64,000 nt of DNA from an uncultured Candidatus Saccharibacteria bacterium (GTDB lineage: Bacteria > Patescibacteriota > Minisyncoccia > Phycocordibacterales > GWA1-40-21): assembly GCA_964513515.1 (NCBI GenBank), contig CAZEMP010000001.1, forward strand, positions 11,336-75,335, given 5' to 3'. Positions within the stretch are counted from its first letter, which is position 1; the number at the start of each line of letters is the position of its first letter. The position numbers were made by a program, and so were the translations under genes. The notes beneath the pieces are model-generated. The model searched no databases and was not told the origin of the DNA. It saw nothing but the letters and a program-made list of their open reading frames with translations. Shown piece by piece: positions 53,577 to 54,410 of the stretch.

Positions 53577-53753
53577 AAATAAATTAAGACCGCCCCCCGC
53601 AACATGTGCGGGGGGCGGCGGTGTCTCATTTGTGCTAGAAACGCGAGTAGGTTTTGTACGCTTTTGGAAAGGAATTTCACCTCTCCGTAGCCACCTCTCA
53701 TTTGCGAAGGAACTTCAATTACCAATTATAGACCTGAAGTTTTCAGTGTCAAG
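53577..53753 (-). ncRNA. candidate sRNA Z (~140 nt) immediately upstream of dnaX: minus-strand promoter TTGACA-17-TATAAT, terminator CCGCCCCCCGCA..TGCGGGGGGCGG + U-run
   Basis: No SD/ORF; perfect consensus promoter; position corresponds to the conserved ffs-dnaX synteny but SRP domain IV motif not recognised by eye. Confidence 0.4.
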
Positions 53754-53784
53754 ATAATACAAAACGAAACGCCCCTCTCACCAT

Positions 53785-54094
53785 GGCCTAGTGAGAGGGG
53801 CGCCTTACGATCTTTGCGGATCCTTGCCTGTCAGTCCGGGAAGTAGAGCAAGGGTCAGTCGAGGTTTGTAACTTCTTCTGGCCCCAATGGTTTCTCATAC
53901 GAGCTCCATGTTAGGGTGCATTGAGGCGATAACCTCCGCTTAGAACGTAGATTTCTTCTCGCTTATTGTGTATAGGGTCGGGCTTTTGTTTATTACTCGA
54001 CTTACCACACACAAATCACAAGACAGATTTGAAAAGAACACACCTCCTTAAAACGAGATGTATAGAGTATAAAAAATATTATTTTTTTGTCAAA
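53785..54094 (-). ncRNA. candidate structured RNA Y (~270 nt): minus-strand promoter TTGACA-16/17-TATACT, terminator GCGCCCCTCTCAC...GTGAGAGGGGCG + U-run
   Basis: G+C-richer than surroundings; paralogous to X with conserved blocks (GUUCU..hairpin..CCUCAA.GCACCC, GAAACC..GGGCCAGAA, ACCCUUG). Confidence 0.45.
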
Positions 54095-54114
54095 TTTTAC
54101 ATAAATTAAAACCG

Positions 54115-54410
54115 CCCCAATCACCGTAACTGTAGGTGAAGGGGCGGGTCCATCTCTCGCGGTCTTTCTGACCGAACAAGGGTACTGCTTTATTATATCT
54201 ATTCTGGCCCGACGGTTTCCAACCAATACCCATGACGGGCGTTAGGTTTTCTGGATCCTTTTCGGGTGCTTTGAGGCTTTACCACCTCCCAGAACTTATC
54301 TCTTCCGAAGTATGTAAGGGGCTGGGTTTTTCCGTTGGGACCAGCATATCCTCACCTAGGGAAAGAGACGTTCTAATCCAACTATAACATACTCTATTTT
54401 TCTGTCAAGT
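54115..54410 (-). ncRNA. candidate structured RNA X (~265 nt): minus-strand promoter TTGACA-16-TATAGT, terminator CCGCCCCTTCACC..GGTGATTGGGGCGG + U-run
   Basis: Paralog of Y; directly downstream of dus stop. Confidence 0.45.

Follow-up and report, generated by a model that had tools for sequence, protein, structure and literature searches.

The spacer between dus and dnaX in a 64,000-nt stretch of contig CAZEMP010000001.1 (positions 11,336 to 75,335 of the forward strand; hereafter, the window) probably consists of three tandem noncoding RNA (ncRNA) genes on the minus strand, designated X, Y and Z, each provided with its own sigma-70 promoter and terminator; X and Y would represent a new RNA family, and Z an orphan. 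Their sequences mark X and Y as paralogs that have diverged within a family missing from Rfam 15, and the core that they share defines a new structured motif restricted to one clade. A preliminary description had nominated the same three minus-strand units as ncRNA candidates, and X and Y as paralogs, and both proposals were borne out: promoter-like sites matching the consensus at 11 or 12 of 12 positions are followed by terminators of -22 to -31 kcal/mol, no credible open reading frame (ORF) was found in the spacer, and X and Y have ordered sequence blocks as well as a folded core in common.

The shared core of X and Y

Related loci (given L-numbers below) were fetched by way of DnaX, and a metagenome scan contributed 80 further loci. 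The core was searched for with R1, a covariance model built from ten core copies, and an nhmmer profile was used alongside. The core spans 70-93 nt and contains conserved GAAAGG, GCACCC, GAAAC and GGGCYAGA motifs. Read from its 5' side, it begins with GAAAGGNGG, which resembles a Shine-Dalgarno (SD) sequence and supplies the 5' strand of helix P1, continues through (A/U)GCACCC, helix P2 and GAAAC, which forms a bulge, and ends in the GGGCYAGA tail. P2, a long hairpin of irregular shape interrupted by A-rich internal loops, closes with CCCnnn...nnnGGG and encloses GG/CC and further helices; the X-type copies have, in addition, an inner hairpin, CUAACGCCC-loop-GGGUAUUG.

In an alignment of 13 sequences, 81% of cells were paired, as against 19-56% when the partners were slid. 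Both sides had changed in 11 of the 21 pairs, and compensatory changes occupied 32 cells, compared with 11.9 in shuffles (0 of 500). A MAFFT alignment, which was not fitted to the model, gave the same picture of covariation; there, the slid-partner control is somewhat flattering because the structure (RNAalifold) was derived from that alignment. The G-U pairs, together with scores of 89 and 12 bits on the two strands, identify the strand of the core as the minus strand, which is the one read from the promoters. Between homologs, the indels have lengths not divisible by three, as seen when L005 is compared with L094 and L008 with L095, and stop codons fall inside the core, indicating that conservation operates at the level of RNA.

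By nhmmer and R1, the core was found in the dus-dnaX spacers of L003/L004, L005, L008, L009, L011, L014, L088 and L092, the last with two copies; R1 also matched L094 (82 bits) and L095 (50.5 bits), both of which are outside its training set, and the L095 copy belongs to an X-like RNA of ~250 nt situated directly after dus. The core-bearing loci are 10 related Paceibacterota loci with DnaX proteins that are 73-88% identical. R1 did not find the core in ~75 loci with DnaX identity below 73%, and six pattern matches in viral contigs did not score with R1 (best, 13 bits). When 185,579 species genomes were searched for the exact pattern GCCTCAANGCACCC...GAAACCNTNGGG, the only hit was a chance match within a Bradyrhizobium coding region. 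The X/Y family seems to be limited to one Candidatus Paceibacterota clade. Searches of the fetched loci by blastn with X, Y and Z yielded almost nothing, so that profile and covariance-model methods were needed, and whole spacers proved unalignable by MAFFT beyond short blocks.

According to the predicted folds, conservation in X and Y lies in a folded module, in which unpaired purines are also conserved, rather than in a single-stranded seed. We propose that X and Y would be abundant, stable, trans-acting structured RNAs, in which the core may be bound by a protein, or possibly by the ribosome, instead of pairing as a linear antisense seed; the SD-like elements near the 5' ends of Y and of the RNAs of several relatives (UAAGGAGGUGAUC type) may bind ribosomes and thereby stabilise the 5' end, and no unit among the three would be a leader of dnaX. 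Any particular binding partner for X and Y is named with much less confidence than the existence of the three RNA genes. R1, combined with the fixed address in the dus-dnaX spacer, provides a handle on a structured RNA family absent from Rfam. To our knowledge, almost nothing is known of RNAs with a regulatory or structural role in the candidate phyla radiation (CPR), whose members are mostly uncultured; should these RNAs be abundant in metatranscriptomes, they would offer a tractable way into the post-transcriptional biology of these organisms, and should they not be, they would constitute an ordinary set of lineage-specific small RNA (sRNA) candidates.

Tandem paralogous sRNAs are familiar from other bacteria, among them PrrF1/PrrF2, OmrA/OmrB, LhrC1-5 and RsmX/Y/Z. 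X, Y and Z resemble these in being short genes arranged head to tail, each with its own promoter and Rho-independent terminator, and in evolving fast outside a conserved element, but in X and Y that element is a folded core of 70-93 nt and not a short single-stranded seed. Unlike LhrC and RsaE, the three units have no C-rich anti-SD seed, and the conserved GGGCCAGAA tail has no targets in the window, where its complement matches no more often than expected by chance. A Csr/Rsm-type sponge was also considered and rejected; GGA occurs seven times in X, five in Y and once in Z, not above shuffles, and almost none of these motifs is unpaired in the minimum free energy (MFE) fold. In contrast to RsmX/Y/Z, GGA is thus neither enriched nor placed in loops, and the units are not Csr/Rsm-like.

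OLE, ROOL, GOLLD and raiA are structured ncRNAs of GC-rich intergenic regions in AT-rich genomes, the setting exploited by the GC-IGR approach (PMC6429828, PMC11109978). The likeness here lies in a GC-rich, gene-free spacer within an AT-rich genome, in a covarying folded module and, for L092, in a predicted transcript of ~980 nt bearing two modules; the differences are that no Rfam match was obtained, that the RNA of the window is split into three short units, and that the family occurs in one narrow Paceibacterota clade.

STAB-SD is a stabiliser of Bacillus mRNAs at their 5' ends (cryIIIA type). Y and the RNAs of L008, L003 and L095 resemble it by sequence only, having an extended SD-like sequence near the 5' end and no properly spaced start codon (Y, UAAGGAGGUG; L008, AAAGGAGGUGAUC; L003 and L095, UAAGGAGGUGAUC), often adjoined by a GUUCUUUUCAAAU element. 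X and Z, in contrast, have no SD-like sequence at their 5' ends.

Predicted transcription units and spacer architecture

The spacer occupies 862 bp (53532-54393) in a window of ~32% GC. It is bounded by Dus (ORF 54394-55434, minus strand; Pfam, E 2e-55) and DnaX (ORF 52500-53531, minus strand; DNA_pol3_delta2/AAA, Pfam, E 2e-37), the close homologs of which bear Candidatus Paceibacterota names, within the CPR. A terminator lies 140-300 nt downstream of each of the three promoters (Table 1); that of X was missed by the terminator scan because of its 9-nt loop. Promoter-like sites numbered 10 in the region, compared with 3.1 +/- 1.5 in shuffles. Across the whole window there were 14 sites of at least 11/12 (shuffles, 4.8), of which three belong to the spacer, all on one strand. 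Independent sRNA genes are recognised by a promoter of their own, a Rho-independent terminator of their own and the lack of coding capacity, all of which are predicted from the sequence for X, Y and Z; a conserved element was found in X and Y, and Z lacks one.

Table 1. Predicted features of the dus-dnaX spacer, in window coordinates
Feature	Positions	Strand	Details
X promoter	54381-54408	-	TTGACA-16-TATAGT, TG before -10; 11/12; -35 overlaps the dus stop codon
X RNA	54101-54374	-	~274 nt; 5' end inferred from -10, 3' end from U-tract
X core	54200-54292	-	P1 hairpin, GCACCC, long P2 with inner CUAACGCCC...GGGUAUUGG hairpin, GAAAC, GGGCCAGA; R1 70.7 bits, E 4e-15
X intrinsic terminator	54112-54147	-	hairpin followed by UUUUAAUUUAU to 54101; -22.1 kcal/mol
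Y promoter	54066-54093	-	TTGACA-16-TATACT; 11/12
Y RNA	53757-54059	-	~303 nt; SD-like UAAGGAGGUG then GUUCUUUUCAAAUC near 5' end
Y core	53873-53943	-	short form without inner hairpin; R1 32.2 bits, E 1e-5
Y intrinsic terminator	53767-53805	-	17-bp stem; U-tract to 53757; -30.8 kcal/mol
Z promoter	53725-53752	-	TTGACA-16-TATAAT, perfect consensus; 12/12
Z RNA	53576-53718	-	~143 nt; orphan unit with two GAGAGGUG repeats
Z intrinsic terminator	53589-53619	-	13-bp GC stem followed by UCUUAAUUUAUUUU; -30.0 kcal/mol
dnaX extended -10 element	53538-53546	-	TGATATAAT (TGnTATAAT); 6 nt before ATG at 53531; read from sequence

The predicted folds of all three units were more stable than those of every shuffled sequence: the MFE was -93.7 for X (z -3.66; 200 shuffles), -103.4 for Y (z -4.25; 100 shuffles) and -52.8 for Z (z -4.54; 200 shuffles). 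The hexamer GAGGTG occurs four times in the ~800 nt from X to Z, compared with 31 times in 128 kb (both strands). As had been remarked in the preliminary description, X and Y are richer in G+C than the genome (0.47-0.50 for the units against ~0.32 for the window), but this is weak evidence for structured RNA here because in the nearby protein-coding units the GC content is very high too, reaching 1.00 at third codon positions (GC3).

No homolog of Z was detected by nhmmer in the ~95 fetched loci. Some sequence identity exists between Z and the 3' part of the long L003 RNA, with the hairpins in different registers. The terminator of Z and the sequence beyond it have paralogous counterparts in X (repeats D3 and D4), suggesting a local duplication. 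We regard Z as an sRNA-like orphan peculiar to this strain.

In relatives with a DnaX identity of 83-88% and a contig that carries both genes, the spacers are free of genes, measure 620-1450 bp and contain TTGACA promoters and GC-rich bodies; a long, gene-free spacer with promoter/terminator units was seen in all relatives examined that have a DnaX identity of at least 73% and both genes on the contig. L019 (61% DnaX identity) carries three promoter/terminator units of other sequence, L017 (65%) has a protein gene instead between dus and dnaX, and distant loci (at most 60%) have short spacers. The content of the spacer turns over very fast. A second sRNA-like family with its own promoter and terminator, W, was observed between the core-bearing RNA and dnaX in L003 (4636-4800), L004 and L095 (2706-2850), with nhmmer E values of 6e-15 to 6e-16 between loci; the window is without W.

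In L009, L011, L088 and L092, a small ORF of 24-33 aa with its own SD sequence lies upstream of the core, apparently within the same transcript; L092 has a single predicted transcript of ~980 nt (promoter at 1436, terminator at 2424-2449) that contains a 25-aa ORF and two cores. The small ORFs of L009, L011, L012, L013, L088 and L092 (24-35 aa) have M-x-G-P-P at the N-terminus and (L/I)-G-A at the C-terminus in common, and CUGGGCGCC is conserved among them at the nucleotide level. In L088 and L092 their GC3 is ~0.9 by hand count of third codon positions. The M-x-G-P-P ORF is absent from X and Y of the window, and L095 retains its SD sequence, ACAAGGAGGA, and has lost the ATG. Some of the relatives' small ORFs end in LGA or AIA; a tmRNA-like reading of these was considered and rejected, as ARAGORN was negative and the ORFs have an SD sequence and an ATG.

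Alternative readings of the spacer

Several observations weigh against the reading of X, Y and Z as functional ncRNA genes. Thirteen sequences, all from one clade, underlie the covariation, and they are also the source of the structure; six relatives of the same clade have no detectable core (L006, L089, L091, L012, L013 and L019), and X, Y and their homologs can barely be aligned outside it. The position of the core downstream of a small GC3-rich ORF in several relatives means that the ancestral unit may have been an mRNA. In the predicted folds, the SD-like elements lie for the most part in base-paired stretches, which weakens a simple model of a sponge for the ribosome or anti-SD. Z, without any homolog, could be a recent and possibly functionless unit. 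Finally, the promoters, ends and abundance of the three RNAs are predictions, and their function is throughout something that we infer.

It is possible, if rather doubtful, that X and Y are fragments of a larger, CPR-specific class of modular RNA, in which a dual-function transcript of ~1 kb, as predicted in L092, would combine a small GC3-rich ORF with repeated modules of ~90 nt. Such RNAs would be part of a hypervariable, GC-rich and strongly promoted group around dnaX, which in the window includes orphan genes with GC3 of 0.86-1.00. That group might serve some function peculiar to the lineage, such as control of the ribosome or interaction with a host.

The main rival explanation, which we regard as unlikely, is that X, Y and Z are decaying remnants of small GC3-rich peptide units and have little or no function. 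This would account for the 24-33-aa, SD-bearing ORFs that precede the core in four relatives, for the SD sequence without an ATG in L095, for the very fast turnover of the spacer and the orphan status of Z, and for the GC-rich protein units with similar promoters and terminators on the other side of dnaX. However, decay would not be expected to leave core helices maintained by compensatory changes across loci, nor near-consensus promoters and strong terminators maintained in all three units. Two copies of the core have been retained both in the window and in L092, and the core is kept in the absence of the ORF in the window, L005, L008, L094 and L095.

A cis-regulatory role, in which the units would be riboswitch or attenuator leaders acting on dnaX through regulated termination, with the core as sensor, appears less likely again. 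The units are always located upstream of dnaX and on the same strand, the core is aptamer-like in size and shape with a terminator within 20-110 nt, and the tandem cores of L092 recall the arrangement of some riboswitches. Nevertheless, what lies beyond X and beyond Y is a further promoter rather than a gene, every unit ends in a strong terminator, no convincing alternative pairing between the core and a terminator arm was seen by eye, and no Rfam riboswitch matched. Furthermore, dnaX has an extended -10 element of its own, which forms the downstream boundary of the RNA units and is similarly arranged in L008, L009, L011, L088 and L095; no SD sequence was found before the dnaX ATG in the window or in the relatives inspected, so that a read-through transcript would also lack one. 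From its sequence context, then, the dnaX mRNA appears to be leaderless and transcribed from its own promoter, and this arrangement appears to be conserved across relatives; X, Y and Z would in that case not be part of a dnaX 5' untranslated region (UTR), which counts against a riboswitch or attenuator.

That the spacer encodes small proteins, with X, Y or Z as mRNAs, is very improbable. SD-like GGAGG elements do occur, and candidate frames can be drawn, namely one of 33 codons in Y, starting with GTG after the SD-like element, and one of 47 codons in X, starting with ATG, but the GTG follows the SD core by only ~1 nt and the candidate frames cross terminators. The longest stop-free run on the minus strand of the spacer (79 codons) likewise crosses terminators and promoters. 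No codon periodicity was detected in the units; the GC content hardly varies among the three codon positions of X (0.48/0.49/0.51) or of Y (0.47/0.48/0.48), as against 0.45/0.33/0.16 in dnaX. Reading UGA as a sense codon (table 25) opened no long frame, and the frames are not conserved among homologs, given the non-triplet indels and internal stops described above.

In many bacteria, ffs, which encodes the signal recognition particle (SRP) RNA (RF00169), lies upstream of dnaX, and Z had been noted in the preliminary description to occupy this classical site. The site itself was confirmed in two distant loci, L055 and L056, where Bacteria_small_SRP was found ~40 nt upstream of dnaX (76.4 and 77.4 bits, respectively), providing a positive control. 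Z ends 45 nt before dnaX (53576 against 53531) and resembles SRP RNA genes in its position, its orientation to dnaX and its size (~140 against ~100 nt), as well as in being an independent small RNA gene with a strong predicted promoter and terminator. The proposal that Z, X or Y is a highly diverged SRP RNA is nonetheless hardly tenable. Rfam 15 was applied to the window at the gathering score, and to positions 53450-54500 at E<=10 with permissive filters on both strands; at the gathering score only two tRNAs were found in the window, and the permissive search of the region returned only weak, terminator-driven matches (rliE, NrrF, PyrG leader and tsr31). None of the 36 relatives' loci scanned gave an SRP RNA match, although the same tool detected it in L055 and L056, indicating that the arrangement of ffs next to dnaX is real and can be recognised by this means, though not in this lineage. 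The predicted fold of Z has no domain IV hairpin capped by a GNRA loop, and the lack of a Z homolog even in close relatives is incompatible with a universal, essential RNA. The presence of a dnaX gene downstream is therefore unusable for the annotation of SRP RNA in this lineage.

A plus-strand stretch of Y, GUCAGUCCGGGAAGUAGAGCA, had been likened to SRP domain IV, and this likeness did not hold: the stretch folds without a GNRA tetraloop (z = -0.95), is missing from X and runs opposite to the polarity of the promoters and terminators, with the G-U pairs of the core favouring the minus strand. We consider it a chance resemblance. The other identities suggested at the outset were also rejected. 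RNase P RNA (type A or B) had no Rfam match, and GAAAC...GGGCC, of which the window and L092 each have two copies, recalls its CR-I only superficially. For tmRNA there was neither an Rfam match nor an ARAGORN prediction, in the window or, with ARAGORN, in 15 relatives' loci. 6S RNA was without an Rfam match, and the predicted MFE folds of X and Y are multi-domain and appear to have no closing terminal helix. What stands of the initial list is its fallback, novel CPR RNAs; a literature search on ncRNAs of Patescibacteria/CPR, and on CPR with SRP RNA, found nothing relevant.

GC-rich units elsewhere in the window

The spacer exemplifies, within a reduced AT-rich genome, the very fast turnover of strongly promoted, GC-rich units, some of them RNA genes and others orphan protein genes. 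On the downstream side of dnaX, three tandem units occupy 50554-52470 on the plus strand, with TTGACA promoters at 50554, 51267 and 51961; each consists of a long hairpin leader, a ribosome-binding site, a very GC-rich ORF and a strong terminator. The GC3 of the ORFs is 0.86 (50731-51135), 1.00 (51452-51877) and 0.64 (51995-52429). The first two proteins are paralogs, 31% identical, for which only 8 matches were found in 1.84 billion cluster representatives, and one GC-rich protein of this group had no homolog among 5.8 billion proteins; none of the neighbouring GC-rich ORFs belongs to a Pfam or PHROG family. Relatives carry other genes at this place.

Two sRNA-like units on the plus strand at 42036-42510 have 12/12 promoters (42036 and 42290) and strong terminators, without an ORF or an Rfam match; the hairpin UUGGCUAGCCAUGCCAA is present once in the first unit and twice in the second. 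On the minus strand, two GC-rich units at 19345-20633 contain ORFs 20023-20511 and 19396-19866, neither of which falls in a Pfam or PHROG family, and the terminator hairpin GAGCCCCTCCGGCAACGGAGGGGCTC occurs twice (20001-19972 and 20633-20608); ORF 20647-21093 is another orphan. Paralogous small ORFs of no known family are located on the plus strand at 48193-49502 (48272-48778, GC3 0.79; 48959-49450, GC3 0.63), with hydrophobic N-termini that look like signal peptides by eye and an 11/12 promoter before the first.

By eye, the unit at 37822-38196 (minus strand) encodes, at 37822-38070, a glycine-poor RNA-binding protein of the RRM type, and it has a 12/12 promoter and a long 5' UTR; this protein is a possible candidate partner for abundant RNAs of this organism. 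A moderately GC-rich unit on the plus strand at 59928-60310 combines a 12/12 promoter, an ORF for a possible membrane protein (~95 aa, hydrophobic N-terminus) and a strong terminator.

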